Numbered from the stretch's first letter, positions 1-50,626 are shown. The stretch is DNA of 64,000 nucleotides from Clostridia bacterium (GCA_017462965.1 JAFTQC010000022.1:96242-160241); one strand, 5' to 3'. The notes: generated from the letters alone by a model not told the origin. Translations and numbers: made by a program.

Positions 1-357
1 ACGGTATTATAAATTTTTTGAATATCTGAAACTTTAATATCAACCAACTTTTTATCATGAATAGGGAGTAGGTAGTTGTTGAAAATAGTGTCATAGTCTC
101 TTAAAGTATCTTCAGATAGATTCTTTAGGTTGGCTCGCATTTCTTTGTAAGAATGAAACCAATCTTTAAATATAATAGAATCATTTTTTGATGTAAGACC
201 TTTTTCATGCTTGTATATAAACTCTGTCATTTGTTTCTCTAGTTCTTTTTTATCCTTGTTGTAAAGCCATTTTCGCTGTTCTTTGCCGTTTGAATCTCTA
301 CCTAAATAGACAATTGCAGCCCAACGATCTTTATATTTTCTAATATGACCTCGCATA
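1..357 (-). CDS. int: Phage tyrosine integrase, N-terminal part (gene continues past window start)
   Basis: My translation of minus strand from ATG at 355-357: MRGHIRKYKDRWAAIVYLGRDSNGKEQRKWLYNKDKKELEKQMTEFIY..., typical integrase N-terminal arm-binding domain; RBS aggagg upstream. Confidence 0.75.
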
Positions 358-462
358 TAATACCTCCTTTAAGTAAACGTTTGTTCCACTTGAAGAAGGC
401 ACAAAATTACTGTAAAATTAAGGCATCTTTCAAGTGATTTTTCATTTGTAATTAGAGAAGAG

Positions 463-498
463 ATAACGAACATCTTGGCGGGTGGCGTTATCTTTTTT
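463..498. terminator. Stem-loop gataacg...cgttatc followed by T-run
   Basis: 7-bp inverted repeat plus tttttt at 493-498. Confidence 0.35.
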
Positions 499-541
499 AT
501 TGTTTTTATTTATGTAGTAGAATATAATAATCATAAAGGAG

Positions 542-754
542 ATGATTATTATGAAAAGTAAATTTTTGTATTATTTTACTAAAATAAATACTTATGTTTT
601 TATAACGTGTCTTCTTTATTACATTCAAAAATTTATTATAAATATCTTTTTGAAAATTCCAGAAAACTTATTGCTAGAAGTTATTTATTTTGCTTTAGCT
701 CTCTTGTTTATAAAAAAGCATGTAATAATTGATTCTCCATATTTAAAAGATTAG
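542..754 (+). CDS. Small hydrophobic hypothetical protein
   Basis: ORF with aggag RBS; AT-rich, weak. Confidence 0.3.
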   Translation: MIIMKSKFLYYFTKINTYVFITCLLYYIQKFIINIFLKIPENLLLEVIYFALALLFIKKHVIIDSPYLKD

Positions 755-1827
755 TTAGTTATATCATCGATGGAAATTTGATTTTCATCGATTTTTTTAT
801 TTGGAGTTGTGCGTTCTTCATAAGGTGCATAAGCTTTTAAAATTTCTTTGTGTTTCTTTAAATCATTTTTTGATTTTAAAATTTCTTGATTATTTTGATT
901 TTTTTCTTTTATAAATTCTAATATTGAGCCAGCTAATCCTTTAGTATCAATATTAAATTTTACAGTTCCAAGTAATTCTAAATTAAATTTGGCACCAAAA
1001 AGAGCTAAAGATATTGCACCTAATACTAGGCCTCCTCCAGTAGCATACCCAATAAATTCAATTGGTCCTGGAGATTGTACATTTAATCTTAAATCTATAT
1101 CATTTTTATCATAAGATGACTCTGTTATGGTGTTGAATACGTCTAGAATACTTAATACTGAAGAAATAAAACTAATAATACTAGTTGCTGGAATGTTTGC
1201 GGTTGTTGTCACATCATATACTACATGAACTAAATCGTCTTTCACAAAAATAGGAGAGAGGGTTCTATCTATATAGTTACTGTATGCACAAGCATCGCTA
1301 ATTGCAGCATGTGAACACATTAGTTTGTATAAATATGGATCTAATAAATCTCTTTTTACAATTTTAATCCAATTTACGTTACGTCTTCTGTTATAAGTAC
1401 ATTCTGGATATGTGGATTCTTCTTGAAAATCTATTTTCTTTTCATATGGATATACAACATCATCAATTAATTCTCCAAAGGCAATTTGAAATGAATTTTC
1501 ACTAGGTATTAGAACAATATCACCAGGACGCATTTCATAAGTAAATCTCATTATTTGATTATAAATTGCACCTGGTCTTTTTTCTTTTTCTTCTTCATAG
1601 AGTTTTGCTATTTCTTCTAATCTTTCTTTTTCAGGCATTTGAGAATATACATTTATATCTTCAATTTTATCCCAGCCTAATGCTATATAGTTATTAAAAA
1701 GAAAATCTTCAAAAAATTTTCCACTTTCAGTTCTTACTAACCAATATTTTCTATTCTTATCAATTATAGGTATGTTAAGTAATTGACATATTAGTTGCAG
1801 TTCTTGTAATTCTTTTTCTTGCATCAT
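751..1827 (-). CDS. Hypothetical protein: N-terminal soluble domain (EVE/PUA-like motifs YWLV...GW...PGD) plus two C-terminal TM helices; candidate superinfection-exclusion/abortive-infection protein
   Basis: 358-aa ORF between integrase and repressor; hydrophobic segments IPATSIISFISSVLSILDVF and IEFIGYATGGGLVLGAISLALFGAKF. Confidence 0.6.
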   Translation of the reverse strand: MMQEKELQELQLICQLLNIPIIDKNRKYWLVRTESGKFFEDFLFNNYIALGWDKIEDINVYSQMPEKERLEEIAKLYEEEKEKRPGAIYNQIMRFTYEMRPGDIVLIPSENSFQIAFGELIDDVVYPYEKKIDFQEESTYPECTYNRRRNVNWIKIVKRDLLDPYLYKLMCSHAAISDACAYSNYIDRTLSPIFVKDDLVHVVYDVTTTANIPATSIISFISSVLSILDVFNTITESSYDKNDIDLRLNVQSPGPIEFIGYATGGGLVLGAISLALFGAKFNLELLGTVKFNIDTKGLAGSILEFIKEKNQNNQEILKSKNDLKKHKEILKAYAPYEERTTPNKKIDENQISIDDITN

Positions 1828-1886: not shown

Positions 1887-2756
1887 TTATTCGTTAATAA
1901 ATGTATTTGTCTCACGCAATTCATAATTTTCTGTTTTTTCAATGCAAAAATCTCTAAATAATATTCCTGTTGCAAGAGCATCAGATAAAGCACGATGAGC
2001 GTTATCTCTATATAAATTTGCATATTCACAGACAGTAGTAAGTTTATAGTTTTTTATATAATCTGGATTTATAACTTTTCGAGCTAGTTCTAAAACATCA
2101 TAAAATTTTCGTTTTTCAGAAAATAAATCTAAATTATTTACATATAAAAATTTCAAATCAAATTCTAAATTATACCCAACAATGTTAAATCCTTTTATAA
2201 ATTCTGAAAATGAATCAATTACTTCTGAGATATTAGGACAATTCTGTAGCATTTCATTAGTTATATTGTTAATCTTTGTTACTTCTTCTGAAATTTCTTT
2301 TTTAGGTTTTACTAAGGTCGTCATATATTCTGTTGGAGCATAGTTTTTGAATTTAATGGCAGATATTTCAATGATATCATCATTTTTAGATGATAAACCC
2401 GTTGTCTCAACATCTAACACTATAAAATCTTTAAATATTTGTTTAGAAGTTTTTTTAGTTATTTGTGAAAATTTATATTCAGGTATCTCTTTTAATATTT
2501 TTTTAATATAATCAGTGTTATTTTTGATATTGACAGTTTTGATGTCCATGGCATTTAGAGTATTATTGAACGAAAGCTTTATCTCTTCAATTCTTTGTTT
2601 TCTTTTTTCTTGATATTCTTTTTCTTGTTTTTGCTGTTCTGTTTTCGAATCCTTTTTTGACTTATGAACAATATAGATTATTATGCTTATTATTAAAAGT
2701 AAAAAAACAAAATCCATTACACCTGATTCTCCTCCTAAAAGTATATTTTTATTCAA
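1887..2756 (-). CDS. DnaQ-like DEDDh 3'-5' exonuclease with N-terminal TM anchor and coiled coil
   Basis: Motifs VLDVETTGL (Exo I), ...HRALSDA (Exo III); N-terminal FVFLLLIISIIIYIV. Confidence 0.7.
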   Translation of the reverse strand: MNKNILLGGESGVMDFVFLLLIISIIIYIVHKSKKDSKTEQQKQEKEYQEKRKQRIEEIKLSFNNTLNAMDIKTVNIKNNTDYIKKILKEIPEYKFSQITKKTSKQIFKDFIVLDVETTGLSSKNDDIIEISAIKFKNYAPTEYMTTLVKPKKEISEEVTKINNITNEMLQNCPNISEVIDSFSEFIKGFNIVGYNLEFDLKFLYVNNLDLFSEKRKFYDVLELARKVINPDYIKNYKLTTVCEYANLYRDNAHRALSDALATGILFRDFCIEKTENYELRETNTFINE

Positions 2757-3423
2757 ATATTTTGCTAATTCTAGCTTCTACAACTTTACCAATAATCTTA
2801 AAATTACAAGTATTGTCTAATTTTCTGGGTGGGTAATAAGAATTAAAAGCAACTAAATCTATGTGATCATCATATTTAACAATCTTTTTTACAGTTGCTT
2901 CTTCACCATCTATTAAAACAATTCCAATTTGCCCATTTTCTACATCATTTTGCTGGTGAACTATAACAATATCATTGTCATAAAGTACTGGTTGCATACT
3001 ATCGCCAGTAACTTTTAATGCAAAATAGTTTTCTGGGTCTGATACATCTTTATCTAAATAGATATATCCTATAAAATTTTCTTCCACTAAGTAGTTATAT
3101 CCAGCTTTTACTGTTCCTAAAAGAGGGAAGACTTTTTTGGAGTCGATTGTTGTTTTAAATTGTTCTTTATATTTTTCTTCATTCAGATAGATTAATTGAT
3201 CATCATCTAATTTTTTCATTAAAACATCTATATCCATATCCATAGCGTTTGCTAAGGCTTTTAATGTTTCAATACTGGGACTAATAGGTTTATTAGTAGA
3301 AGGGTTTATGTTTTTTTCGAGCATATGAATGTAGCTTCTACTAGTTCCTATTTTGTTTGCAAAATCCTGAAGGGATAAGTTGTGTTCGTCTCTATATTCT
3401 TTTATAATTTCTCCTAAATTCAT
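2749..3423 (-). CDS. CI-like phage repressor (XRE HTH + S24 LexA-like peptidase)
   Basis: MNLGEIIKEYRDEHNLSLQDFANKIG HTH; GDSMQP and K-containing S24 motifs; RBS aggagg; start chosen at internal ATG 3423. Confidence 0.85.
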   Translation of the reverse strand: MNLGEIIKEYRDEHNLSLQDFANKIGTSRSYIHMLEKNINPSTNKPISPSIETLKALANAMDMDIDVLMKKLDDDQLIYLNEEKYKEQFKTTIDSKKVFPLLGTVKAGYNYLVEENFIGYIYLDKDVSDPENYFALKVTGDSMQPVLYDNDIVIVHQQNDVENGQIGIVLIDGEEATVKKIVKYDDHIDLVAFNSYYPPRKLDNTCNFKIIGKVVEARISKIFE

Positions 3424-3439
3424 AGTAATTCCTCCTTTC

Positions 3440-3550
3440 TTACAGTAACATTGTACAATATATTTTACAAAAAAACAATAATTTTTGTAAAATATACTTG
3501 ACACAAAAAAACGATAATGCTATATTGTATTTGTACAGTAAATAGAACAA
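3440..3550. promoter_or_regulatory. Divergent cI/cro promoter-operator region
   Basis: Repeated TGTACAGTAA operator motif at 3440-3461 and 3532-3550; ttgaca(3498-3503)-17nt-tatatt(3521-3526) for cro. Confidence 0.6.
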
Positions 3551-3567: not shown

Positions 3568-3759
3568 ATGAAGAATCGAGTTAAGGAATTTAGAGAACAA
3601 CAAGGAATGACACAAGAAGAATTGGCTGAAAAGTCTGGAATTTCAAGAACTACAATTTCAGGATTTGAAAATGGTACTATAGAAATAACAACTAATACAA
3701 CTATGGATAAAATTTCTAAAGCGTTGGGAAAGAAGACAAAAACTGTATTTTTTTTATAA
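3568..3759 (+). CDS. Cro-like XRE-family HTH regulator
   Basis: EFREQQGMTQEELAEKSGISRTTISGFENG; RBS aaaggag. Confidence 0.8.
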   Translation: MKNRVKEFREQQGMTQEELAEKSGISRTTISGFENGTIEITTNTTMDKISKALGKKTKTVFFL

Positions 3760-29951: not shown

Positions 29952-29967
29952 GAGTTATATTATTTTT

Positions 29968-30331
29968 TGGTGGAGATGAGGAGAATCGAACTCCTGTCCG
30001 AAAATTCTTCCACATGAACCTCTCCGAGTGCAGTTTATCTTTTTAGATTCCCAAAGGTTAAACGCCGACAAACAGGCTTTTAATTTTGGTAACTTTATAA
30101 ATACCCACTATCTCAAAGTTTTGATAGTTTTGTTTCCACTTTAGATGACGCTTGTTCTTAATGAAAGTGGCACAAAAAGACAAACGTAGCCGCAACTAGG
30201 CAGCTAAAGCAACTTTATTGTTGTTAATTATTTATAATTCTCACATTTTTTAGATGGCCAAGTGAGAATCCATCACTCGCTATTCATCCTTCTAAATATC
30301 CGTCGAAACCTTTACATCCCCGTGTTTAGAA
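29968..30331 (-). ncRNA. ssrA: tmRNA (SsrA)
   Basis: Minus-strand 5' GGGGATGTAAAGGTTTCGACGGATA..., tag reading frame ending ...VALAA-stop (GTT GCT TTA GCT GCC TAG), 3' T-arm/acceptor GGAGTTCGATTCTCCTCATCTCCACCA; promoter TTGCAA-N17-TTATAAT upstream. Confidence 0.9.
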
Positions 30332-31394: not shown

Positions 31395-32342
31395 ATGATG
31401 AAAATATATAAAACAGTAGATGAACAAGGACTATTTAGAGAGACGACGAAACTGGAACGAGGTTGTTGGATAAATCTCGTGAATCCCACCACTCAAGAAA
31501 TAAATACAATTGCAAATAGTGTTGGTGTTATGGAAGATTTCTTGCGCTATCCTTTGGACCAAGAAGAAAGAGCCAGAATTGATATTGAAGATGATCAAAC
31601 TCTTATACTTATTGACTTGCCAATAGCTGAAAAAAGTGAAGATGGCATAAATGGTTTTTCAACAATTCCGCTTGGTATGATAGTTGTTAGAGATGATTAT
31701 TTCATTACAGTATGTACACAAGATACGCCAATTATAAATGATTTTGTGGAATGTAGGGTTAAAAATTTCTTTACATTTAAAAAGACAAGATTCATTTTGC
31801 AAATATTGCTTAAGAATGCTACATACTACTTAAGATATTTAAAATATATTAATCGTGAGACTGATAAAGCAGAACATAAACTTCAAAAAACTATGAAGAA
31901 TCGTGAGCTTATCAAACTTTTAGAATTAGAAAACAGCTTGGTTTATTTCACTACATCTTTGAAATCTAATGAAATAGTTATGGAAAAGTTGCTTCGTACA
32001 AAATGTATCAAGATGTATGAAGAGGATGAAGATATACTAGAGGATGCTATCGTCGAGAACAGACAGGCTATTGAGATGGGCACTATTTATAGAGACATTT
32101 TGAATGGAACGATGGAAGCGTATGCATCAATTATTTCAAACAATTTGAACTTGGTGATGAAATTTTTAGCATCAGTTACAATCGTAATGTCAATTCCTAC
32201 GATAATTGGTGGACTTTGGGGCATGAATGTAAAGGGGCTTCCTTTCGCGGAAAGTCCTTATGGATTTTGGATTGTGCTTGGATTTACAGGTTTAGTTTCT
32301 TTTGTTTCATGGTTGATATTAAAAAAGAAAGACATGTTTTAA
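31395..32342 (+). CDS. corA: CorA-family Mg2+/Co2+ transporter
   Basis: GMN motif (LWGMNVKGLPF) and two C-terminal TM helices. Confidence 0.85.
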   Translation: MMKIYKTVDEQGLFRETTKLERGCWINLVNPTTQEINTIANSVGVMEDFLRYPLDQEERARIDIEDDQTLILIDLPIAEKSEDGINGFSTIPLGMIVVRDDYFITVCTQDTPIINDFVECRVKNFFTFKKTRFILQILLKNATYYLRYLKYINRETDKAEHKLQKTMKNRELIKLLELENSLVYFTTSLKSNEIVMEKLLRTKCIKMYEEDEDILEDAIVENRQAIEMGTIYRDILNGTMEAYASIISNNLNLVMKFLASVTIVMSIPTIIGGLWGMNVKGLPFAESPYGFWIVLGFTGLVSFVSWLILKKKDMF

Positions 32343-32357
32343 TAGAGGGATTGAAAG

Positions 32358-32879
32358 ATGAAATATATTTTTGTTTCTGATATTCATGGAAATGTTGAAA
32401 AATTTAGAGAAGTTATCCGCATTTTTAAAGAAGAAAATGCGGATAAACTTGTTTTTTTGGGTGATACATCTTCTGAATATAGTAAAACTTCGGATGAAGA
32501 AATTGCGGATATTTTGAATAGTATGAAAAGAGATGTTCATGTTATACGTGGAAATTGTGATACTAGAAGATTTGAAGAATTGTTAGAATTTGAAATGTAT
32601 GGTTTAGATAATTTATATGTTAATGGAAAATTTGTGACGATTACACATGGCCATTATTATAATATGTACAGTTTGCCTGAAAATTGTGGAGACATCTTTA
32701 TTCAGGGACATACTCATGTTCCAATTCTTCAAGTGATAGATGGTAGAATATTCTCAAATCCTGGTTCAGTCAGCAGGCCAAGAGGAGTAGACTTAAGGTG
32801 TTATATATTGATTGATGAAGAAAAAATATATCTGAAAACTTTGGATGGAAAAGTAGTAAAAAAATTGGAATTGAGCTAG
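32358..32879 (+). CDS. YfcE-like metallophosphoesterase
   Basis: MKYIFVSDIHGN, GDT, GNCD, GHTH motifs. Confidence 0.8.
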   Translation: MKYIFVSDIHGNVEKFREVIRIFKEENADKLVFLGDTSSEYSKTSDEEIADILNSMKRDVHVIRGNCDTRRFEELLEFEMYGLDNLYVNGKFVTITHGHYYNMYSLPENCGDIFIQGHTHVPILQVIDGRIFSNPGSVSRPRGVDLRCYILIDEEKIYLKTLDGKVVKKLELS

Positions 32880-32938
32880 CAAGAGGGACGCCCCTTTTTG
32901 TGAAAATATTTCACAAAAAGGGGCGTCCCTCTTGCTGG
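32876..32938. repeat. Perfect ~57-bp palindrome of GGGACGCCCC family
   Basis: gcaagagggacgcccctttttgtgaaa-ata-tttcacaaaaaggggcgtccctcttgc. Confidence 0.85.
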
Positions 32939-32967
32939 AAAAAGGAACCGTCCCAATTTCCAAATTT

Positions 32968-33375
32968 TTAGTTCACGAAAAAGTTGAGGACTCTGATGAA
33001 TTCATCTTTGTCGTCGAGTCCGATTTCGGTGGAACACACGAAATGGACGGGTTTGTCAGTGCAAAGGTTGGGAAGGTCTTCTTCGAGCGCGGAAAAAAGA
33101 ATTTGCTGGGATGTGCGAATGGGACCACCGACTCGCCTTTGACTTGCGGGGGTGGGATCTTCTTCATATTTCGGCTCCATCATCTGTACGAGTTCTTCTT
33201 TGGAGTCAAGTTCGCTCAGGAACTGCCGAAGGATGCCACTCATTCGCTTAAGCTCCGGACCGCGTGCGGAGTACGTGTAGTCACCCATGTGTCCCCAAAA
33301 GCCAGAACGCTCGCGAGTGATTGCGAAGAGAAACTGGTACTTGGGAGTGTTTGTAGGTTTGTCGAACCATGCCAT
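32968..33375 (-). CDS. Hypothetical protein (GC-rich gene)
   Basis: 135-aa ORF, GC-rich codons; plus-strand overlapping ORF judged spurious. Confidence 0.45.
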   Translation of the reverse strand: MAWFDKPTNTPKYQFLFAITRERSGFWGHMGDYTYSARGPELKRMSGILRQFLSELDSKEELVQMMEPKYEEDPTPASQRRVGGPIRTSQQILFSALEEDLPNLCTDKPVHFVCSTEIGLDDKDEFIRVLNFFVN

Positions 33376-33421
33376 AATATCACCTCATTTAATTTGATGT
33401 CGAAGAGTGTTTGAAGATGCG

Positions 33422-34210
33422 TTAAACAGTGAAGTAACGTCCTTCATCGAGAGCTATAGTGTTGCCGAAAACCTTAGATGCTTCGCGAACGTATTTGTTC
33501 ACATCTTCTTCGGGCCAGAAGTGAGTCAGTGCCAGCTTTTTGACACCAGCTTGGAGTGCAATCGTGGCGGCTTGCTTTGCGGTCAAATGGTTATTGATTT
33601 CAGGGTAACCATAGGATTCGAGCAGGCTTGATTCGCAGATGAGCAGGTCAGCTCCTTTTGCAAAGTCTGCAATCTTGTCTTTTGCAGCGAAAGAAGTGTC
33701 GCTTGTATAGACGAGTGACGAATTCTTGGATTGGACTTTGACTGCAAATGTGAGAATATTGTGCTCTGTTGTGCAGAACGTAAGTGTGAGATTGCCAAGC
33801 TCTATTTTGGTATCCTCGGTTAGAGGATGGTATTTGGCAAAAGCGTTTTGCTCAGTGCAGATATCCCGAGAAATCGAGATAGGGGAAGCTGGTAGATAGA
33901 TGTCAAGAGGCTTCTTGAGTCGCCCAAGCTTGTGAAAAACGTATGACGCATACTGGAAGATGAAGATATCGTTGTAGTGATCTCGGTGCAGGTGAGAAAG
34001 GACAATGGTTAATCCATCAAGAGAATCTGGAAATTTCAGATTATTGTGGATTCCACTGCCGCAATCAAGCAGAATCTTTGTTTGTCCATCCCTGACAAGA
34101 AATCCAGGGCAATGATGGGCACCAGTACTGTATGGGGATTGAGTGCCAAGAACTTTAAGCTGCATGAGATAATTCCTCCCTTTGCTTGTACGTAATTGTA
34201 TACTAATCAT
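33422..34210 (-). CDS. MBL-fold metallo-hydrolase
   Basis: HLHRDHYND (HxHxDH) motif. Confidence 0.75.
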   Translation of the reverse strand: MISIQLRTSKGRNYLMQLKVLGTQSPYSTGAHHCPGFLVRDGQTKILLDCGSGIHNNLKFPDSLDGLTIVLSHLHRDHYNDIFIFQYASYVFHKLGRLKKPLDIYLPASPISISRDICTEQNAFAKYHPLTEDTKIELGNLTLTFCTTEHNILTFAVKVQSKNSSLVYTSDTSFAAKDKIADFAKGADLLICESSLLESYGYPEINNHLTAKQAATIALQAGVKKLALTHFWPEEDVNKYVREASKVFGNTIALDEGRYFTV

Positions 34211-34391
34211 AAAACCAATGTAAGTTCGCAGAAATTATATCAACATAATACCGGTATTTCAACATAATTCACAAATTTTATCGAAAGCTTCCTTAATTTT
34301 ATCAGGATTTTCATCACTCGTATCAAGTGTCCATAAATTTCCTTCGTTATCAGTATTTATAATGTTTTGTGCAAGTTTGATTTTAGAATCG

Positions 34392-35378
34392 TTACCGAAG
34401 TTGACTAGACACACGATGAGAAATTTGTTCTTCTGTTAAACCGCGTAATTTAAGGCGTTCATGCTGTTTTTCTTCATTAACTGTCATAATCAAAATATTA
34501 TTATTACTATAGTGGAGAAGCCCTTTTTCAAGGAGTAGAGCAGCATTAATTAGAATTATTCCTTTTTTATTGTACATTTCTCGGCGCATACGTTCTTCAA
34601 GTGGATTTTGCATAAGTTCGTCTAATTGTGCTAATTTTTCTGGGTCATTAAAAACAATTTCTCCAAGAATTTTTCTGTTTATACTACCGTCAGGATTTCT
34701 GATGGCTTCGCCAAATTTCTTTACAATAGTTTCTCTAAGCTCAACATATTTTGGTTCTTTAAGTGTACTTAAAATATCATGTGAAATTTTATCTAAATCA
34801 ATGTTATGAACTTCGATTCCTTTTGCTTTTCCAAGTTCTACAAATTTCTCTGTTACATAAGATTTGCCAGAACCTATAGTTCCAGTAACTGAGATTATAT
34901 ATTGTCCAAGCATTTTTTCTTCTAATTTTTGTTTAACATGCATTGGTACAAATGAAATAAGTTTTCCTTGTTCTTTTGTCATTGCTTTTACAACACTAGA
35001 GCTTACGTGAGAAAATTCTGGTGCAGTAAAAAGAGGAATTGTTTCAAATTGCATTCCTTGACTTTTTTGAGCAAGGTGAAGTGTATATTCATCATTCAAA
35101 TCTTTAGAATTTCTGATCCCTCTAATAACAACATCAATGTTATTTTCATAGACAAAATCAACAAGTAATCCGGTGTAACTAACAACTTTTATATTAGGCA
35201 AATGCTTAGTGCAATGTTTTACCATGTCTAATCTTTCTTCAAGTGTAAAAGTATATTTTTTTTCGGGATTGACGCCAATTCCTATAGTTAAATTAGGGAA
35301 CAAACGATAAGCTCGCTCAATTAAGTCAAGATGTCCTCTGGTAATTGGGTCACCAGAAAATGCATAAAGTGCGTTCAT
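34392..35378 (-). CDS. Bifunctional phosphopantetheine adenylyltransferase / dephospho-CoA kinase (CoaD-CoaE fusion)
   Basis: N-terminal MNALYAFSGDPITRGHLDLI (PPAT H/TxGH motif); C-terminal GTIGSGKSYV P-loop of CoaE. Confidence 0.75.
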   Translation of the reverse strand: MNALYAFSGDPITRGHLDLIERAYRLFPNLTIGIGVNPEKKYTFTLEERLDMVKHCTKHLPNIKVVSYTGLLVDFVYENNIDVVIRGIRNSKDLNDEYTLHLAQKSQGMQFETIPLFTAPEFSHVSSSVVKAMTKEQGKLISFVPMHVKQKLEEKMLGQYIISVTGTIGSGKSYVTEKFVELGKAKGIEVHNIDLDKISHDILSTLKEPKYVELRETIVKKFGEAIRNPDGSINRKILGEIVFNDPEKLAQLDELMQNPLEERMRREMYNKKGIILINAALLLEKGLLHYSNNNILIMTVNEEKQHERLKLRGLTEEQISHRVSSQLR

Positions 35379-35419
35379 AAAATCACTCCTTTCAACAGCC
35401 TTAATTATAGCACAAAATT

Positions 35420-35575
35420 TTGTACAAAGGGACGGGGCTTTTTTCGGGACAAAGGGACGGTTCTTTTGTCCTTTTTTTATAAAAAATAATTAGTAAATAT
35501 TGAGTAATAAAAAAGGACAAAAGAACCGTCCCTTTGTCCCGAAAGAGAACCGTTCTCTTGTCCTTTTTTTATTTA
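35420..35575. repeat. Compound inverted repeat: two GGACAAAGGGACGGTTCTTTTGTCC hairpin arms around AT-rich core
   Basis: Left arm 35441-35466 is exact reverse complement of 35508-35533. Confidence 0.8.
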
Positions 35576-35579
35576 GCAA

Positions 35580-36230
35580 TTATCTTGCACGGAGCAAAAT
35601 GAATTGCGTTCTGGCTTCATCCAAGATTTGGTTGAAGTTTTTGTCCAGTCGTTCTTGCGTTTGCTCGAACTGATAGAAGCATTCGCCCATTGTCGCGTGG
35701 TGCTTAGCGGTGATTTCTTGAAGTACAGGATTATTTCTGAGTTTCTCGGATGCGTTTTCGAAAGTGCAGGTAAGGTCGCGATCATAGTAAAGGGCCATCA
35801 GATTTGCATCGAGTTTGTCGCACATGTAGGCAAATTGTGCTTCAGGTGTTTCGTGCCCATCGAATTCGAGAATAAGCTTTTCGTATTCTTCTGCTTTGAG
35901 AAGGGGAGAAAGAAGCTTGTGTACGGCTTGATGTCCGCTATCAAGCTTGTCCTCGGCAGATACACCGTCAAACGGGGTGATATCAGAAATGAGGATTTCT
36001 TCGAGTTCGTGTACAGCAAGCATAAGAATTACTTTTCGAAGGTCGATGGAGTATTCGAATTCGGAGTCGATTGCAATTGCAAGCATGCATGTGCTGAAAA
36101 TGTGTTCAGCAACGCTTTCAAGACGTTCGTGTGAGACGTTCCACTGTTTCCAACCGCTTCGTACGAGCGTTTTGAGGTTGTTGGTAAGATAGTAGAAATC
36201 AAGTACAGTTTTGCTGCTATGATTGTTCAT
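35580..36230 (-). CDS. HD-domain hydrolase (YfbR-like 5'-deoxynucleotidase family)
   Basis: AEHIFSTCMLAI...LMLAVHELEEILISDITPFD HD motif. Confidence 0.65.
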   Translation of the reverse strand: MNNHSSKTVLDFYYLTNNLKTLVRSGWKQWNVSHERLESVAEHIFSTCMLAIAIDSEFEYSIDLRKVILMLAVHELEEILISDITPFDGVSAEDKLDSGHQAVHKLLSPLLKAEEYEKLILEFDGHETPEAQFAYMCDKLDANLMALYYDRDLTCTFENASEKLRNNPVLQEITAKHHATMGECFYQFEQTQERLDKNFNQILDEARTQFILLRAR

Positions 36231-36326
36231 GAAGATCCCTCCTATTGAAAAGTCGTCTGGATATTAAAGAATCTTTTAATTGTCAAGTAATTATAATTGC
36301 TAAAAAAATAAAAGTCAATAAAAATG

Positions 36327-36357
36327 CACTTTAAGAGATGTCCCCAAAGTGCATAAA
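36327..36357 (-). terminator. Stem-loop atgcacttt...aaagtgcat
   Basis: 9-bp inverted repeat downstream of 36364 gene, T-run on minus strand. Confidence 0.5.
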
Positions 36358-36363
36358 TTTGAT

Positions 36364-36603
36364 TTAAAATTCTTGGTTTTCGATACCGTTTATTTGAACA
36401 TATATTAATCTGTAACTATCGTTTTTGCTCCAAATGCATGAGTTTATGCCAGGCTCCATTTTCCAATCTTTTAATTCTTGTGAAAGGGCATCACATCTTG
36501 ATTTATAGTAAGCAAGAGCTTCATCTTTATTTGATTCAAACGATTTTTCTGCTATTGTATTTTTTGTATCTTTTTCAATTACTGTATAAGTTAAGTTATC
36601 CAT
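36364..36603 (-). CDS. Hypothetical small protein
   Basis: ORF with RBS aaaggagg. Confidence 0.5.
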   Translation of the reverse strand: MDNLTYTVIEKDTKNTIAEKSFESNKDEALAYYKSRCDALSQELKDWKMEPGINSCIWSKNDSYRLIYVQINGIENQEF

Positions 36604-36727
36604 TAAAAATCCTCCTTTTAAAGAATATTGTATATGATAAGAAAATGAAGTTCAATTAGAATATTTTGGCGAAAAAAAGGCCCTTGGTACGACCACCTAT
36701 AGTGTGATCGCGCCGAGGGCTTACGAG

Positions 36728-37276
36728 TTACGCAAATTCGCTGAACCGCCAGAGCAGGGAATGCTTCAGCGGTACGATTTTGGTAACAATGGACCCAAGT
36801 ACCACCCCGCAGACCAGGGTAGAGAGGCCCAACATGATGGGGAAGAACCAGCCAGATCCGTGCTGGAGTTCCATCCAGGGATGAGAAGAGCTCCAGGACC
36901 AGGTCATCCATGAACCATCCCATGCTTTGATACACAGGATGCGCTCTGTGGTCTTACCTTCGTCGATCCAGTACCCAGCGGGAAGCTGATCAGTCGCATC
37001 CGGATTTGCCAGAATGATTTCTGCAGCATTGTGCAGTCCAGCATACGTGTCCGGATAGAGGGCGGTCAGAGCATCGCTCAGGAACGGGAAGCCCAGAAGC
37101 ATCATGCACACAAACCATGCAATGATGGTGTTGAAGATTTTCCGATGAAAGTGAAATTTCATGAAAAATTCATGACGCTCGCTTCGGGTCATCTGAGCAA
37201 GATAGATTTCGTCGCGTTCTTTCTTGGTCAGAGCGGGAGTAGAGGGATAGCGGACGTACTTGGGGTTGGTGGTCAT
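36728..37276 (-). CDS. Hypothetical membrane protein (GC-rich)
   Basis: 182 aa, three hydrophobic helices; RBS aaggaggtt. Confidence 0.55.
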   Translation of the reverse strand: MTTNPKYVRYPSTPALTKKERDEIYLAQMTRSERHEFFMKFHFHRKIFNTIIAWFVCMMLLGFPFLSDALTALYPDTYAGLHNAAEIILANPDATDQLPAGYWIDEGKTTERILCIKAWDGSWMTWSWSSSHPWMELQHGSGWFFPIMLGLSTLVCGVVLGSIVTKIVPLKHSLLWRFSEFA

Positions 37277-37343
37277 ATAGGGAACCTCCTTAAAAAAATG
37301 ATTTTAGGGTTTACACTTATATGTTAACATAAAAATGGCAAAA

Positions 37344-37420
37344 AAGCAATTCATCAAGAGGGACGCCCCTTTTTGTGAAAATTTTTCACAAAAAGGGGCG
37401 TCCCTCTTGATGAATTGCTT
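37344..37420. repeat. 77-bp near-perfect palindrome of GGGACGCCCC family
   Basis: aagcaattcatcaagagggacgcccctttttgtgaaaa / ttttcacaaaaaggggcgtccctcttgatgaattgctt. Confidence 0.85.
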
Positions 37421-38561
37421 ATTTACTTAATCGCTCGTTTACGTTTTCTCTTAGAAGCGTGTAGATAACTGATGTTACAGGTACGCCTAGAAGCATTCCG
37501 ACAAGTCCAAATAGGCTGCCGCCAACGCTGACTGCAACAAGAACCCAAATGCCAGGAAGGCCGATCATGTCGCCTACAACTTTAGGGTAAATTAAATTTG
37601 TCTCAACTTGTTGAAGGATAAGTACAAAAATAATAAATGTGATTACTTTAATTGGCTCTACAGATACTATTAAGATTGCACCAATGATAATTCCTATAAA
37701 TGCACCAACTACAGGGATTAAAGCTGTAACGCCGACAAAAACACCAACTGTAACGGCATAAGGAATTTTCAAAATTAACATTCCAAGAACACAAAGAAGT
37801 CCTAAAATTGTAGCTTCAATGCATTGCACAGAGAAGAATGTTGAAAATGTATTTTTAGTCAAATTAGAAATTTTTGTGATTCTCTTATACCATTTAGGGC
37901 TAAGATATGCTTTAAATAGTCGATCAAATTGGTTTAAAAGTTTTTCTTTGCTTACTAAAATGTAGGCTGCAAAAACGATTGAAATAATAGAATCAATTAT
38001 TACTCCAAATGTTGCTCCGACAAATGAAACAGAAGAGCTAAGAACACCTGATACTACTTTGAGAAGGTCATTTTTTATAGTATCTGGATTAATTTCGATA
38101 TTTGCTAGAACTTCTTCAATAAATTTACCTGTTTCATCAGAATTTTGTAAGTAAAGCTGAACTTTTTCGGCGTAGTATGGCACTTTTTCAATTAATAATT
38201 TGATTACATTTATAAGTTCTGGAACAACCAATGTAACTATTCCAAACAAAATAAACGCTATAAAAATAAGTGATAAAATTAATGATAAAGCGCGTGCGAG
38301 TTTTTTATTTAGCTGAAATTCTTTACCTGTTTTCTTATTTTTCCTAGTTTTAAGCAATCTTTTTTCAATTGCTGCCATAGGAATGTTAATAATAAAAGCA
38401 AGGAATCCACCTAAAATAAATGGAGAAATAATTTCGATAAAGTTGTTTAGGAATCCCATTACGATATCGACATTGCTTACACCCCAAAAAATAATTGCTG
38501 CAAAAAGTACAATTTTAAAAATTCTTTTTAAATCATCTTTGTTTTTTTCCAAGATGTTCAC
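37419..38561 (-). CDS. AI-2E family transporter (PerM/YhhT-like)
   Basis: 380 aa polytopic membrane protein with characteristic AI-2E topology and C-terminal GLPG...VLL region. Confidence 0.7.
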   Translation of the reverse strand: MNILEKNKDDLKRIFKIVLFAAIIFWGVSNVDIVMGFLNNFIEIISPFILGGFLAFIINIPMAAIEKRLLKTRKNKKTGKEFQLNKKLARALSLILSLIFIAFILFGIVTLVVPELINVIKLLIEKVPYYAEKVQLYLQNSDETGKFIEEVLANIEINPDTIKNDLLKVVSGVLSSSVSFVGATFGVIIDSIISIVFAAYILVSKEKLLNQFDRLFKAYLSPKWYKRITKISNLTKNTFSTFFSVQCIEATILGLLCVLGMLILKIPYAVTVGVFVGVTALIPVVGAFIGIIIGAILIVSVEPIKVITFIIFVLILQQVETNLIYPKVVGDMIGLPGIWVLVAVSVGGSLFGLVGMLLGVPVTSVIYTLLRENVNERLSK

Positions 38562-38594
38562 ATCCTTTCATATGGTAGTATTATACAATAATTT

Positions 38595-38795
38595 TATCAA
38601 GAGGGACAGCCCTTTTTTGAGAAATGCATCAACAGGGACAGCCCTTTTTGAGAGAGTGCATCATCAACGGGGACAGCCCTTTTTGATAAACAAGTAAAAA
38701 TAATTTGCACCATTATTAATATTTACATTTATCAAAAAGGGCTGTCCCCGTTGATGATGCACTCTCTCAAAAAGGGCTGTCCCTCCTGATACGTT
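38595..38795. repeat. Compound MITE-like inverted repeat of GGGACAGCCC family (~63-bp arms, ~40-nt AT-rich centre) plus extra solo unit
   Basis: Arms 38625-38690 and 38731-38795 complementary with 2 mismatches. Confidence 0.8.
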
Positions 38796-38871
38796 TGTCG
38801 AAAAATAGCGAGCAAAAGTGATTGAAATTTGGCATAAATGCTAGTAAACTGGAACAGTCGCGCAAATAAAG

Positions 38872-39567
38872 TTGAGAAGAGGCCGTGAGTTGGAGACTAT
38901 AAAAAGTTTGAAACTGAAAATTGAACAATTAGAGTCACAAAATAAAGTTTTGTTAAATATGTATGAAAGTGTTAGAGAGTTTAAGCATGATTACGGGAAT
39001 TTCATCCAGATTCTCGATGGTTACAGTAAGATGAATAGTATGGATGGTGTTAAGAAGTTGTGTAATAAAGCAAAGCTAATTTATAAGGATGTTAATAATA
39101 TGGGAATGCTTACACCTGAACTTATAAATAATCCTGTAATTTATAATATTATTGTGAGTAAATTTTTTACTGCGAAGGACTTTGGTATAAATATTAATTT
39201 AGAAGCTGCTATTGATTTCGAAAGTATAGAAGATAAGATTTCCGGAGAGGATTTTTTGTATATATTTACAGAACTTTTAGATAATGCAATTGAATCGGCA
39301 AAGTTTAGTGATAAGAAAGAGATTAATATTACTTTTTCGGAAGATATTAGTCAAAATTGTATATATGTAATAATTGAAAATACGTATAAAGTAGATGAAT
39401 TGAATTTAGATAAAATATATGAAAAAGGGTACACTACGAGAAGTGAGAAGAGCAAAGAACATGGATTTGGGCTTTGGAATGTTAAAAAGATTCTGAAACG
39501 TTCGGATAGTCTGGAGTTGTATACTTCGAAGGGAGATATGTTTATTCAAGAGATAAAAATAAAGTGA
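38872..39567 (+). CDS. GHKL/HPK10-type histidine-kinase ATPase fragment lacking a membrane sensor domain
   Basis: H-box FKHDYGNF; N-box ELLDNAIES; G-box GFGLWNV. Confidence 0.6.
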   Translation: MRRGRELETIKSLKLKIEQLESQNKVLLNMYESVREFKHDYGNFIQILDGYSKMNSMDGVKKLCNKAKLIYKDVNNMGMLTPELINNPVIYNIIVSKFFTAKDFGININLEAAIDFESIEDKISGEDFLYIFTELLDNAIESAKFSDKKEINITFSEDISQNCIYVIIENTYKVDELNLDKIYEKGYTTRSEKSKEHGFGLWNVKKILKRSDSLELYTSKGDMFIQEIKIK

Positions 39568-39641
39568 ATATATTTTTGTTGTGCGCAGAAAATTATAATG
39601 CTAAAATATTTTTGAAGAAAATTTTTTAGGAGGTTATTTGA

Positions 39642-40796
39642 ATGGCTAATAGATTTATTTTAAATGAAACATCTTATTTTGGAAGAGGTGCTAGAGAGGT
39701 TCTTAGCACAGAGATTAAAAATAGAGGATTCAACAAAGTTCTTGTTGTTACTGATAAAACTTTACTTGAATGTGGAGTTGCTGGAAAGGTTACAGCAAAG
39801 CTTGATAATGCAGGGATTGCATATGATGTGTTTGCTGAATTAAAGCCAAACCCAACTGTTAAAAATGTACAAGATGGTGTTGAAGCTTGTAAAAATTCTG
39901 GAGCGGATGTTATTGTTACTGTTGGTGGCGGTTCTGCAATCGATACTGCAAAAGGTATTTCTATTATAATGACAAATCCAGAACATGCTGATGTTGTTTC
40001 TTTAAATGGTGTTGTTGAGACTAAAAATCATGGTCTTCCTATAATTGCGCTTCCTACAACAGCTGGTACTGCGGCAGAAGTTACAATTAACTATGTTATA
40101 ACAGATGAGGAAAGAGATGTTAAAATGGTTTGTATCGATCCACATGACATTCCTGTTCTTGCAATTGTTGATACTGAATTAATGGAGACTATGCCAAAAT
40201 CAATTGCTGCTGCAACTGGTCTTGATGCGTTGACACATGCCATTGAAGGATATATCACAAAAGGTGCAAACTTGATGTCAGATATGTTCCATATGAAAGC
40301 GATTCAATTAATATTCGAGAATTTACCTGCTGCGGTAAACGAAAAGAATCCAGAAGCTGTTGAAAAAATGGGATATGCTCAATATATTGCTGGTATGGGC
40401 TTTTCAAATGTTGGTCTTGGAATAGTTCATTCACTTGCGCACCAACTTGGTGCTGTTTATGATACTCCTCATGGAATTGCAAACGCAATATTGCTTCCTT
40501 ACGTAATGGAATTTAACGGAGAAGTTTGCTATGAAAGATTTAGAGAAATTTTGTTAGGGCTTGGAATTACAGAAGCTAAAGAAATGAATAAAGAAGAATT
40601 AATTGCAAGAATGGTTTCTGAAATTAGAGAGCTTTCTGCAAAAGTTGGTGTTACACAAACTGTTTCAGAGGTTGGTGGAAAAGAAGAAGATTTAGACATG
40701 CTTGCAGAAAAAGCATTTGTAGACCCTTGCTATGGAGGAAATCCTAGAACAGCAAGCGTTGAAGATTTGAAAAACTTATATAAAGCTGCTATGTAA
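39642..40796 (+). CDS. Iron-containing alcohol dehydrogenase
   Basis: GGGSAIDTAKG motif, His-rich metal site HAIEGY...HSLAHQLG. Confidence 0.85.
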   Translation: MANRFILNETSYFGRGAREVLSTEIKNRGFNKVLVVTDKTLLECGVAGKVTAKLDNAGIAYDVFAELKPNPTVKNVQDGVEACKNSGADVIVTVGGGSAIDTAKGISIIMTNPEHADVVSLNGVVETKNHGLPIIALPTTAGTAAEVTINYVITDEERDVKMVCIDPHDIPVLAIVDTELMETMPKSIAAATGLDALTHAIEGYITKGANLMSDMFHMKAIQLIFENLPAAVNEKNPEAVEKMGYAQYIAGMGFSNVGLGIVHSLAHQLGAVYDTPHGIANAILLPYVMEFNGEVCYERFREILLGLGITEAKEMNKEELIARMVSEIRELSAKVGVTQTVSEVGGKEEDLDMLAEKAFVDPCYGGNPRTASVEDLKNLYKAAM

Positions 40797-40862
40797 TAAA
40801 AAAAGGACAAGGGGCGTCCCCATTGCTAAAAAAGAGGCTAGCCTACAAATAGGCTAGCCTTT
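40797..40862. repeat. GGACAAGGGGCGTCCCC unit plus self-complementary aggctagcct x2 hairpin
   Basis: aggctagcct-acaaat-aggctagcct between convergent genes. Confidence 0.7.
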
Positions 40863-40868
40863 GAAGTG

Positions 40869-41693
40869 TCAGGGTTCGCTGGTAATTTTGAATGTGATGA
40901 CGTGTCCCAGCATGGAGGGGAGAGCGGCCATAAAGCTATCAAGTATGGCGTCTATTCCGCCATTTTCGACTTTTTCTTCCATGCTTTCGAAGTTTTTGAT
41001 TGCTTCAATTGACAATTGTAATTGCTCGTCTGTGGGTGTAGAGAGGATTAGGTACTGCAGTCCTCTGTGAACTTGGTATTTTGTGCAAAGGAAGCAGAAA
41101 AGTAGCAAGATGGCTAAACCAATTGGATATGCTAGTGTGTTCGAACCACCAAAAAGTGCGTAAATGATACACAAAGTTACACCGTAGATGAGCTTGAGAA
41201 ACATTGAGTTTGAACCACAATGCTTGGAAATCCTTGAAGAGTTTTTTACTTCTTCGAGTGTCGGAATTCGCTGGAGCTTGGCGTACGCACTGATTACCAT
41301 GTGTTCTGCAGAGTGAAATTGTGAAACTTTATAGAACGGACTTGATTTCCGCTTGTACATGTACCAAACTCGGAAGAATGACAGCAGATTTGGCAGTGCG
41401 AAAAAAGTGAAGAAGAGTGAGATAAAAAACTCGTGTATGCTGGCAGAAAGGATTCCAAGAATGATGATTAATCCACTCAATAGAATCTGTAATTTCGTTT
41501 CAGAAAACTTGAATGTTTTCTTGATTTTTGACTGTTCGATTCCACGGAGAAACTGTATCGGTGCTGTTATGCTACATATTTCGTTTTGTTCGTTGAAGTA
41601 CGTTTTTACCCCCATTCCCTGAACTGTATTGGAGTGAAAAATGATTCCATCCCGGTTGGACTCGGCTTCTTGGACGTGTTTATTGTTCGCCAT
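40869..41693 (-). CDS. Membrane protein, DUF1385 (YqhQ)-like
   Basis: 274 aa with several TM helices and HSAEHM motif; assignment tentative. Confidence 0.45.
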   Translation of the reverse strand: MANNKHVQEAESNRDGIIFHSNTVQGMGVKTYFNEQNEICSITAPIQFLRGIEQSKIKKTFKFSETKLQILLSGLIIILGILSASIHEFFISLFFTFFALPNLLSFFRVWYMYKRKSSPFYKVSQFHSAEHMVISAYAKLQRIPTLEEVKNSSRISKHCGSNSMFLKLIYGVTLCIIYALFGGSNTLAYPIGLAILLLFCFLCTKYQVHRGLQYLILSTPTDEQLQLSIEAIKNFESMEEKVENGGIDAILDSFMAALPSMLGHVITFKITSEP

Positions 41694-41796
41694 AACAAGT
41701 CTCCTTTTTCAAGATTTTTTACCAATAGAGTATACAACAATTTACATAAAAATTCAACAAGAAAGCACCTGAGGACATCCCCAAGTGCTTTCTTTT

Positions 41797-42567
41797 TTAT
41801 ACTCCTTTCTCGAGTGCAAGTTCATACACCCATTCCCAGAAGAAATCTTCCAGGAAGACAAGTGGTGCTTGTCCATGGGACCAATTCCCAACCATGTAGG
41901 CGTTTTTGGTTATGCCATCTGTGACTTGACATCTTTTTGCGTATTTGCTTTTGGAAATATCGAGGTCGAACAGATTGCTGAAGTCAGAACGCCTGTGAAT
42001 GCTGTCGTTTTCACCGTAAGCGACAAAACAATTTTTTGTGAATTGAAGCTTAGATGATTCGGCAGGTTTGTTTCCTGAAATGAAGACGTATCCGTCTAGA
42101 TACGGATTTTCAGCAATTGCAACTTTGTATGCTGCAATGGCGCCGTTTGAGTGTCCTGCAAGAAGTAGCAAAGCATCAGGAAATTTATCGTGGATGTCTT
42201 TTATGACATTGGACAAATCCTTTTGTTGCTTGCGAAATTGAGCGTTGCCACGGGATTGCGGACAGATTATGAGGACTTCATCAGTCATTTGCAAAGTATT
42301 TTCCTTTGCGTATTTCAGTGGATGGTTGACTTTTGACATTACCCAGAGGTCGTTTATGTTACTGCCGCCATTGTTTCCATCGCCGTGAAGGTAAATGATT
42401 ACAATGTTTGGTGTAACGATGTCGTCTTCTGGATAAATCCATGCTTGGTTCCAAGGATTGCTACGTTTTTCAACTACAGTGATTGCTTTTGCTGGACACA
42501 AAGTGGCAGAAAAAAGAATCACTGTTACTGTAAAACATAGCAAGCACCGCATGAAAATAGATTTCAT
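41797..42567 (-). CDS. Secreted alpha/beta-hydrolase esterase
   Basis: Signal peptide; GHSNGA nucleophile elbow. Confidence 0.7.
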   Translation of the reverse strand: MKSIFMRCLLCFTVTVILFSATLCPAKAITVVEKRSNPWNQAWIYPEDDIVTPNIVIIYLHGDGNNGGSNINDLWVMSKVNHPLKYAKENTLQMTDEVLIICPQSRGNAQFRKQQKDLSNVIKDIHDKFPDALLLLAGHSNGAIAAYKVAIAENPYLDGYVFISGNKPAESSKLQFTKNCFVAYGENDSIHRRSDFSNLFDLDISKSKYAKRCQVTDGITKNAYMVGNWSHGQAPLVFLEDFFWEWVYELALEKGV

Positions 42568-42630
42568 GGAAAATGGTAACCTCCTTTTTGCGAATTTACA
42601 TAATTATACCACAAAATCTGTAAAAAGGGA

Positions 42631-42663
42631 ATCGTCCATTTAACGGACGTCTCTCGTGGATGA
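42631..42663. repeat. GACGGACGTC-type palindromic unit
   Basis: atcgtccatttaacggacgtctctcgtggatga; related copies at 49360-49390 and 57430-57463. Confidence 0.7.
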
Positions 42664-42763
42664 AAATTATGTTTACTTTAGCAAGATGCTGTGATATAAT
42701 CCTGCATGGTAAATATCCCTGATATACAGACGTTTTCTACACTAAGAATGTCAATTTTAGGAG

Positions 42764-44398: not shown

Positions 44399-44435
44399 GC
44401 AACAATGGCTTCACATGAAGTAGAGGTGAGTTACG

Positions 44436-44714
44436 ATGGGGCTTAACATCCGCAAACGAGTCCTCATTCATGAGGAAGTGGTTCATAGATGCAAATCTTG
44501 CAACGTCATATTTGGCAAAGATGCTTTGTTTTGCTCTCAATGTGGTAAACCGCTCGAAAAAGAGAAAACAAAAATCTATGCTAATTACGGCAAAAAAGGA
44601 CTTACATCTCTTAGCTATGTCTCGCCTGACGGCACAACGTTCAACACTAAAGGAAAGCTCACTCAAAAAATCGCAGACGGCGTTTCATACACAACGAACA
44701 TGAACAAATCCTGA
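44436..44714 (+). CDS. Small zinc-ribbon protein
   Basis: CKSCN...FCSQCG motif. Confidence 0.55.
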   Translation: MGLNIRKRVLIHEEVVHRCKSCNVIFGKDALFCSQCGKPLEKEKTKIYANYGKKGLTSLSYVSPDGTTFNTKGKLTQKIADGVSYTTNMNKS

Positions 44715-44728
44715 TAATTCAGGACAAC

Positions 44729-44770
44729 AAAAAATGGACAAGGGGACGGTTCTCTTGTCCATTTTTTTTA
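44729..44770 (+). terminator. Rho-independent terminator (repeat-family hairpin)
   Basis: aaaaatggacaag-gggacggttct-cttgtccatttttttt. Confidence 0.7.
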
Positions 44771-44912
44771 GCAAGAGGCAGCAAGAGGGAACGTCATCAA
44801 CGGGGACAGCCCTTTTTGATAAACATAAACATTAATAAAAGTGTAAATTATTTTTACTTATTTATCAAAAAGGGCTGTCCCCGTTGATGACGTTCCCTCT
44901 TGCTGCCTCTTG
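44771..44912. repeat. Compound MITE-like inverted repeat of GGGACAGCCC family (52-bp perfect arms, 37-nt AT-rich centre)
   Basis: 44771-44823 exact reverse complement of 44861-44912. Confidence 0.85.
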
Positions 44913-44980
44913 ATGATTCCGTCTCCATGTCCCAAAAAGGAGCGTCCCTCTTGCTGAAAAAGGAAACGCTCCAATTTGTC

Positions 44981-46204: not shown

Positions 46205-46211
46205 TCAATTT

Positions 46212-46268
46212 AGAAATTGGGACGGTCCCTTTTTCCAATTTGGAAAATAGAACCGTCCCAAATTCCAA
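46212..46268. repeat. GGAAATTGGGACGGTCC-type imperfect palindrome inside operon intergenic gap
   Basis: ggaaattgggacggt ... accgtcccaaattcc. Confidence 0.65.
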
Positions 46269-46272
46269 TTAT

Positions 46273-47232: not shown

Positions 47233-47256
47233 AAAAAATTCCTCCTTAGATGGTAA

Positions 47257-48309: not shown

Positions 48310-48422
48310 GTCATCACACCTTTCTAAAATTGGTCGTAAAATTATCGTGAACCGTGTGAAAAACCGATTAAATTAACATAAAATATATACCATAAAAAGC
48401 GTGCTGAGTCAAGTAGCAAGCT

Positions 48423-48446
48423 AGCAAGAGGGACGCCCCTCTTGCT
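48423..48446. repeat. Short GGGACGCCCC hairpin
   Basis: agcaagagggacgcccctcttgct. Confidence 0.7.
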
Positions 48447-48455
48447 AGAAAAAAA

Positions 48456-48490
48456 GCACCCCACACGTATTTGTGCGGGGTGCAGTAGTA
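48456..48490 (-). terminator. Stem-loop gcaccccacacg...cgtgtggggtgc with T-run on minus strand
   Basis: Perfect inverted repeat then aaaaaaa (plus) downstream of 48497 gene. Confidence 0.65.
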
Positions 48491-48496
48491 GAATAG

Positions 48497-49264: not shown

Positions 49265-49359
49265 AGTTTTCTACCTCCTATTTTCTGGTAGTCGTTTGGG
49301 TTAACATTGAAACACAAAAATATTATCATATAAAAATTATGAAGTCAAATTGCAAATTT

Positions 49360-49425
49360 CGTCCATTTGACGGACGTCCGCCATGGACGAAAAAAAGGAC
49401 AAGAGCCCCGTCCCCTTGTCCTTTT
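49360..49425. repeat. GACGGACGTCC unit followed by GGACAAG-AGCCCCGTCCC-CTTGTCC hairpin
   Basis: Read directly; second hairpin doubles as terminator of 49424 gene. Confidence 0.75.
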
Positions 49426-50500: not shown

Positions 50501-50538
50501 CCCTCCTCCTGCAATCAGTATTTTATCATAATACTACA

Positions 50539-50614: not shown

Positions 50615-50626
50615 TTGTAGCAATGT

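Follow-up and report, generated by a model that had tools for sequence, protein, structure and literature searches.

The window analysed here, a 64,000-nt stretch of DNA from a Clostridia bacterium, begins in a lysogeny module whose minus-strand genes run in the order repressor, DEDDh exonuclease, gene A and integrase, with a small plus-strand gene (gene B) lying between gene A and the integrase. The coordinates of all features are listed in Table 1. An earlier note on this DNA had placed gene A between the integrase and the repressor; this holds, and two further genes, the exonuclease and gene B, share the interval. The integrase is complete in locus L003, where it is a 371-aa Phage_integrase protein.

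Table 1. Features of the gene A/gene B locus and of two comparison loci; coordinates are those of the window unless another locus is named.
Feature	Coordinates	Strand	Remarks
Tyrosine integrase, 5' part	1..355	-	Gene start at ~355; remainder beyond the window edge
Gene B, 67-aa two-TM protein (MKSKFLYY...SPYLKD)	551..754	+	ORF, convergent with gene A
Gene A, DUF8426/PHROG_10226 protein, 358 aa	751..1827	-	PUA-like and ACT-like domains, one TM helix, charged helical tail
Gene A, post-TM region, aa 282-358	754..984	-	AF2 model
Terminator-like hairpin and T-run	766..802	+	Just past the gene B stop, within the last codons of gene A
Gene A, sole conserved hydrophobic TM-like helix, aa 258-281	985..1056	-	Ends in near-invariant G278-G279
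Gene A, small beta-beta-alpha-beta-beta (ACT/ferredoxin-like) domain, aa 191-262	1042..1257	-	Holds the helix at ~212-235
Gene A, K-x-N-V-Q-S-P-G-P-I-E motif, aa 247-257	1057..1089	-	Immediately before the TM helix
Gene A, PUA-like (EVE/YTH-type) reader domain, aa ~20-190	1258..1770	-	Invariant R32, F95, D103
DEDDh/RNase_T 3'-5' exonuclease with N-terminal TM anchor	1887..2756	-	Between repressor and gene A
CI/LexA-type repressor	2749..3504	-	HTH_3 and Peptidase_S24; upstream of gene A, same orientation
Cro-like gene	3568..3759	divergent from repressor	ORF
TM-less branch of the family with multi-TM gene	L123 4001..5811; L124 2617..4380	same strand	Two loci

A full-length tmRNA gene was found at 29968..30321 on the minus strand (Rfam, 164 bits; ARAGORN), and its ARAGORN tag peptide, GIYKVTKIKSLFVGV, looks atypical. 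The 21 nt at the 3' terminus of the tmRNA, TTGGTGGAGATGAGGAGAATC (29967..29987), recur in the same orientation just past the integrase in L003 (10501..11000). This repeat is probably the att core, and the element is probably a ~31-kb prophage integrated in ssrA. G+C content climbs from ~0.29 to 0.35-0.46 beyond ~32 kb (32000..64000), as would be expected if the host chromosome resumes to the right of the prophage.

The ORF that the earlier note had assigned to gene A is present, encodes 358 aa with the motifs quoted there, and carries an RBS-like sequence, GAAAGGAA, 5' of its ATG. The surrounding DNA has a G+C content of 27%, at which an ORF of this length is unexpected by chance. Conservation likewise indicates that gene A is real: it has 73 homologue clusters (28-100% identity), a full-length match to PHROG 10226, a family of unknown function (E 2.4e-79; aa 16-336 aligned to profile positions 10-313 of 369), and a family defined by its C-terminal module (C-module), for which a search of 1.84 billion representatives returned 739 proteins at E <= 1e-3 (clusters at 50% identity). 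An identical protein, MBQ8298630.1, is deposited from a Clostridia MAG. In precomputed annotation, PF28530 (DUF8426) is assigned to P0001, which is identical to the gene A product, and to all 73 homologues. The gene A product is thus already classified as a member of DUF8426 and PHROG 10226; its association with gene B, described below, is newly found. We found no description in the literature of the DUF8426/PF28530 family or of an architecture combining an EVE/PUA domain with a TM helix, and a BFVD fold search returned a single full-length viral relative, uncharacterised, and no annotated match. Homologues of gene A occur in 16 of 50,697 deposited phage genomes, a patchy distribution as expected of an accessory (moron-like) gene.

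The earlier note had proposed that the N-terminal half resembles EVE/PUA-like sensors of modified nucleic acids and had recommended a structure prediction for this part. The AF2 model, built on 65 homologues (mean pLDDT 88, pTM 0.86), gave the N-domain a PUA-like pseudo-barrel fold, and its best fold matches were modified-base readers, including readers of type IV restriction. At the sequence level, no Pfam EVE, YTH, ASCH or PUA model matched the gene A product at E <= 1, and when 33 diverse N-domains were compared with the same four families, only two touched PUA (E 0.14). Similarly, searches of PDB sequences with the protein, the full alignment and half-alignments gave no real match, only chance ones such as canavalin and HutB. 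As modelled, then, the gene A product joins EVE and YTH by fold only: the confident model supports the proposal at the level of fold, and membership of EVE, YTH or ASCH by sequence was not borne out. W29 is present in 99% of N-domain sequences, alongside the three invariant residues given in Table 1, and the motifs of the family in this domain are YWLVRTxSG, NQIxRF and GDIVLIPS. We infer that the ligand of the PUA-like domain is a modified nucleic acid or nucleotide.

The C-module includes the small ACT-like domain, which ends in the QSPG motif; S252 and G254 of this motif are invariant across 197 sequences. Across 155 family proteins, the segment corresponding to aa 258-281 is free of charged residues over a median length of 22 aa, at a median KD of 2.05; KD reaches at least 1.6 in 97% of 126 representatives. 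The earlier note had described two strongly hydrophobic helices and suggested a topology prediction. Only aa 258-281 is hydrophobic family-wide; the other candidate, aa 212-235, is hydrophobic in the gene A product and its close relatives only and is modelled at pLDDT > 90 as the helix of the beta-beta-alpha-beta-beta domain. The two-helix description was accordingly replaced by a single conserved TM segment. In the model, this helix leads into a ~72-aa Lys/Glu-rich tail, made up first of an amphipathic beta-hairpin or linker, then of a long helix rich in Lys and Glu (aa ~298-330), and lastly of a disordered end. The nucleic-acid-reader domain and the lack of a signal peptide in the gene A product argue for an N-in orientation; an excess of K+R after the helix (2.6 per 15 aa, vs 1.5 before it, across the family) speaks to the contrary. 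Given the compact packing of the AF2 model (again, pTM 0.86), the TM helix of the resting protein might be shielded, or might lie at the periphery. The only fold matches of the C-module were to ACT/ferredoxin-like domains, with none to a known pore or effector, and Pfam, NCBIfam and PADLOC detected neither a nuclease (HNH, PD-(D/E)xK, GIY-YIG) nor a McrBC-type NTPase in the gene A product.

The ORF of gene B extends over 542..754, with the likely start ATG at 551 and an AAAGGAG RBS 9 nt ahead of it. Genes A and B are arranged tail-to-tail, their stop codons overlapping by 4 nt (751-754). The gene B product is deposited as MBQ8298629.1, annotated as hypothetical, and matches no Pfam, PHROG or PADLOC family. 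Small two-TM ORFs occupy the same place in phage IPP63, Paenibacillus, Veillonella, a metagenomic element and Ulvibacterium. We assembled 117 loci in which gene A is complete (28 drawn from GTDB genomes, 80 from IMG/VR and the others collected earlier) and scored convergent hydrophobic ORFs of 45-110 aa ending within 60 nt of the gene A stop. Such an ORF lay downstream of gene A in 60 of 80 non-redundant loci with room for one; among the remaining long ORFs of the same loci the frequency was 21 of 245 (odds ratio 32; Fisher p = 5e-30). Single-linkage clustering with phmmer joined 101 ORFs from 100 loci, comprising 67 distinct sequences, into one family. When an HMM of this family was run against the 4804 ORFs of at least 40 aa from all loci, it recovered 110 adjacent-downstream ORFs in 101 of the 117 loci, and its one further match in a locus carrying gene A overlapped the 3' end of that gene. 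The control frequency and the specificity of the HMM for the adjacent-downstream position led us to reject the possibility that gene B is a chance ORF of AT-rich DNA.

Proteins of the gene B family are 62-77 aa long with two TM helices. Gene B is convergent with gene A in Clostridia, most Bacilli and Negativicutes, where the 4-nt stop/stop overlap is the commonest geometry; among 89 convergent pairs, 36 overlap and 39 lie within 20 nt. It is co-directional in 13 loci, from Bacteroidota and a few Firmicutes (some Bacilli). Its retention across phyla and orientations indicates that gene B is a real gene, functionally tied to gene A. The pneumococcal version is present on at least 1000 contigs. 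The unit is thus made up of two genes; the earlier note, which had envisaged sensor and effector in one polypeptide, overlooked the conserved two-TM partner. We also considered gene B as a class II holin and rejected this, as it has no Pfam or PHROG match and lies at the integrase end instead of in a lysis cassette. The co-directional partner in Ulvibacterium marinum (L005, 8996..9214) is named 'DUF2798 domain-containing protein' by UniRef; a Pfam scan of this protein gave no DUF2798 match at E <= 1.

The terminator-like hairpin past the gene B stop has a predicted folding energy of -11.4 kcal/mol with a z-score of only -1.45, which is not significantly better than shuffled sequences. It includes a perfect 12-bp palindrome, ATCGATGGAAAT/ATTTTCATCGAT (766..792), that encodes IDENQISID in gene A. 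A second hairpin, GATAACG...CGTTATC followed by a T-run, was seen by eye on the plus strand at 460..500, between the integrase start and gene B, and may be a terminator or insulator. Promoter-like sites were no more frequent than in shuffled sequence. The co-orientation of gene A with the repressor suggests that it is expressed in the lysogen.

The position of the pair was compared across its hosts. Gene A homologues lie between a repressor (or ImmA/HTH) gene and an integrase in the Streptococcus phage IPP63, the satellite Javan462, a Clostridia MAG and another Firmicute. In Veillonella the homologue adjoins Bro-N and integrase genes, and in Paenibacillus it lies past the holin-amidase cassette, at a prophage end. 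Bacteroidota homologues are found in variable islands, which hold nSTAND-metallophosphatase, HipA and patatin-TPR genes in Ulvibacterium and HNH, Fic and IS66 genes in Echinicola. Overall, a tyrosine integrase is encoded within 1.5 kb downstream of gene A in 57 of the 117 loci (median distance 428 nt), on the same strand in 55 of the 57. The DEDDh exonuclease of the window matches the PADLOC DEDDh (Cas-associated) model and candidate PDC-S48. It was rejected as a conserved partner of gene A, being found in 5 of 117 loci, and could represent a further accessory or defence gene, independent of the A-B pair. In Sporomusa ovata (L023/L076), a related exonuclease lies immediately upstream of the gene A homologue.

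The earlier note had also suggested a search of defence databases. PADLOC returned four PDC-S02 models over aa 27-163/189 of the gene A product (best E 4.9e-20), and no other match; the alignment is confined to the N-domain and ends near profile position 131 of 324. PDC-S02 was put forward as a defence candidate by guilt-by-embedding (10.1101/2024.09.26.614923). A true member, P0094 (E 4.7e-139, profile positions 1-343 of 346), has a DUF8426-type N-domain followed by a Mrr_cat nuclease at aa 189-301; Pfam found no Mrr_cat in the gene A product. The two proteins share a homologous N-terminal PUA-like domain, a similar size (~330 aa) and defence-associated contexts, and differ in the C-terminal half, which is the Mrr_cat nuclease in PDC-S02 and, in the gene A product, the ACT-like domain, TM helix and tail, with the two-TM partner in addition. 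Since it has no nuclease, the gene A product is neither PDC-S02 nor a type IV restriction enzyme.

Searching with the N-domain only gave one protein from the single sequence and 26 from the alignment, including the Mrr_cat fusion; PF28530 was present in all of the 26 but one short fragment. The family also has a TM-less branch (P0088, P0071; ~317 aa) that ends in an acidic ...YDDYEFP tail. In this branch the next gene on the same strand encodes a protein of 263-284 aa with a soluble N-domain and several TM segments, which matches no known family. The sensor N-domain thus occurs in three arrangements, with a nuclease or a TM helix in the same polypeptide or with a multi-TM protein encoded by a separate gene, and two of the three are membrane-based. 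Fusion of the same N-domain to the Mrr nuclease in PDC-S02 indicates that the effector is swappable. We found no other sensor attached to the C-module: among the best 142 new representatives, all that were long enough carried the DUF8426 N-domain, and the C-module-only matches were short fragments. Modularity is thus established for the N-domain only.

Taken together, the reader-like fold, the Mrr_cat fusion, the conserved TM helix, the linkage to gene B across Clostridia, Bacilli, Negativicutes and Bacteroidota, and the mobile-element contexts argue for a role in defence. Our leading reading, held at a little short of an even chance, is that genes A and B together make up a defence module carried by prophages, whose PUA-like sensor responds to modified nucleic acid or nucleotide and acts via the membrane. 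Genes A and B would be an accessory cassette of temperate phages and satellites, carried beside the integrase. In a lysogen, protein A would be made along with the repressor and reside at the membrane with protein B, its PUA-like domain in the cytoplasm. Upon infection by a second phage, the PUA-like pocket would bind a modified base, whether this is part of the invading nucleic acid or has been set free as a modified nucleotide during infection, and the signal would reach the TM helix of protein A by way of the ACT-like/QSPG hinge. Proteins A and B might then compromise the membrane, causing abortive infection, or block DNA entry. Weakly against a defence role, one PDC-S02 representative was not protective in E. 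coli B against T4, T5 or T7 (10.1101/2024.09.26.614923).

Among the alternatives, the most probable is superinfection exclusion without killing, in which protein A, tethered with protein B at the inner face of the membrane, would bind the injection machinery or the DNA of an entering phage, whether or not this is modified. In temperate phages, Sie-type proteins act in this way, blocking genome entry while the cell survives. The combination of a membrane anchor with a nucleic-acid-reader fold would suit such a role, as would the site in the lysogeny module, which is typical of sie genes, and the lack of a recognisable toxic or enzymatic effector domain in the gene A product. However, the Sie proteins known to date show no homology to it, searches of PADLOC and PHROG matched no exclusion family, and the sensor-nuclease fusion of PDC-S02 fits sensing inside the cell better than a block at entry. 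On balance, we regard exclusion of this kind as unlikely.

The pair could instead serve the phage itself, sensing the nucleotide or RNA state of the host to tune lysogeny, induction or lysis timing, with no antiphage role. The position of gene A downstream of the repressor in the same orientation and the holin-like size and two TM helices of gene B fit this idea, and PUA-like domains are also found in RNA-binding housekeeping proteins (PMC12871103). It is nevertheless improbable: the pair also occurs past the lysis cassette, in satellites without lysis genes and in non-prophage Bacteroidota islands with defence-type neighbours, and its spread among related phages is patchy and moron-like (the 16 of 50,697 phage records).

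An addiction or toxin-antitoxin-like locus, in which gene B or the TM helix of gene A would be a membrane toxin neutralised by its partner or by the convergent overlapping transcript and would stabilise the prophage, was likewise weighed. The way in which the two genes meet tail-to-tail in most Firmicutes loci, their 3' ends overlapping, and the RBS of gene B together with the terminator-like hairpin inside the 3' end of gene A, resemble the convergent overlapping geometry of prophage type I TA loci; but gene B is on the same strand in 13 loci, so that antisense control is not a feature of the family, its 62-77 aa with two TM helices are unlike typical type I toxins, and a conserved 190-aa reader domain with invariant residues would be left unexplained, all of which makes this reading quite improbable.

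Returning to the reading of genes A and B as a membrane-acting defence module, we compared it with known systems. Lambda RexA/RexB is a two-gene module of the immunity region, co-oriented with the repressor, that pairs a cytoplasmic nucleic-acid-responsive sensor with a membrane protein. It excludes phages by membrane depolarisation; RexB has four TM helices and RexA is soluble. Functionally, the A-B pair would be most like RexAB, with no detectable homology; it differs in that sensor A has its own TM helix and partner B is a two-TM mini-protein that is usually convergent. Cap15 (CBASS), PycTM (Pycsar) and Cam1 (type III CRISPR) join a ligand-binding soluble domain to TM helices that disrupt the membrane once activated. 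The effectors of these systems sense cyclic (oligo)nucleotides made by a separate enzyme. A sensor domain with linked TM segments is likewise present here, as the one TM helix of protein A (97% of 126) and the two-TM partner B (101/117 loci), whereas the A-B loci have no linked signal-producing gene, the sensor is a PUA-like reader, and the proteins are not homologous.

Type IV readers, such as those of the EVE-HNH enzymes VcaM4I/TspA15I and the McrB-N domain of Thermococcus gammatolerans (PMC6765204; PDB 6yex, 6p0g), are PUA-superfamily readers in modification-dependent restriction; by contrast, the gene A product has no nuclease or NTPase and no EVE membership by sequence, and its effector side is predicted to be membrane-embedded. 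PUA-Cal-HAD offers an experimental precedent for the proposed logic: a PUA-like domain senses m6-dAMP and thereby activates a non-nuclease abortive effector (PMC12871103, bioRxiv 2026). The likeness lies in the two-gene organisation and in the linking of a PUA-like sensor to an abortive effector other than a nuclease; the PUA-like family is a different one, with the motifs VWWGWWxKxxExxP and TPxYY, and the effector is a calcineurin-like phosphoesterase with a HAD phosphatase that depletes dNTPs (PMC12871103). PUA-like domains have been reported in fusion with Cal-CE, HEPN, DrHyd, TIR, HNH and McrB, a membrane effector not being among them (PMC12871103), and TM fusions are not described in surveys of EVE contexts. 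The A-B cassette would be a reader-domain sensor with membrane output and a dedicated mini-protein partner.

A more specific reading, possible but doubtful, is restriction-like sensing joined to membrane-acting immunity, in which a modified-base reader is wired to its own TM helix and a two-TM mini-protein and not to a nuclease. At the same doubtful level, prophages and satellites in Firmicutes (pneumococcal prophages among them), Negativicutes and Bacteroidota would thereby encode a module for modification-triggered abortive infection or exclusion. Candidate defence modules exist in large numbers, and the A-B cassette would be one more. Modified-base readers have so far been found to drive nucleases, in type IV restriction, and recently nucleotide-depleting enzymes; if the defence reading is true, they would also drive a membrane effector. 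The two-TM partner alters what needs to be cloned; by itself, gene A may prove inactive or toxic. The same reading, if true, would explain what the large orphan family DUF8426/PHROG 10226 does, which comprises at least 739 clusters at 50% identity and is common in Gram-positive prophages, and would add a further lysogen-encoded barrier for phage therapy, possibly one specific for phages with modified genomes.
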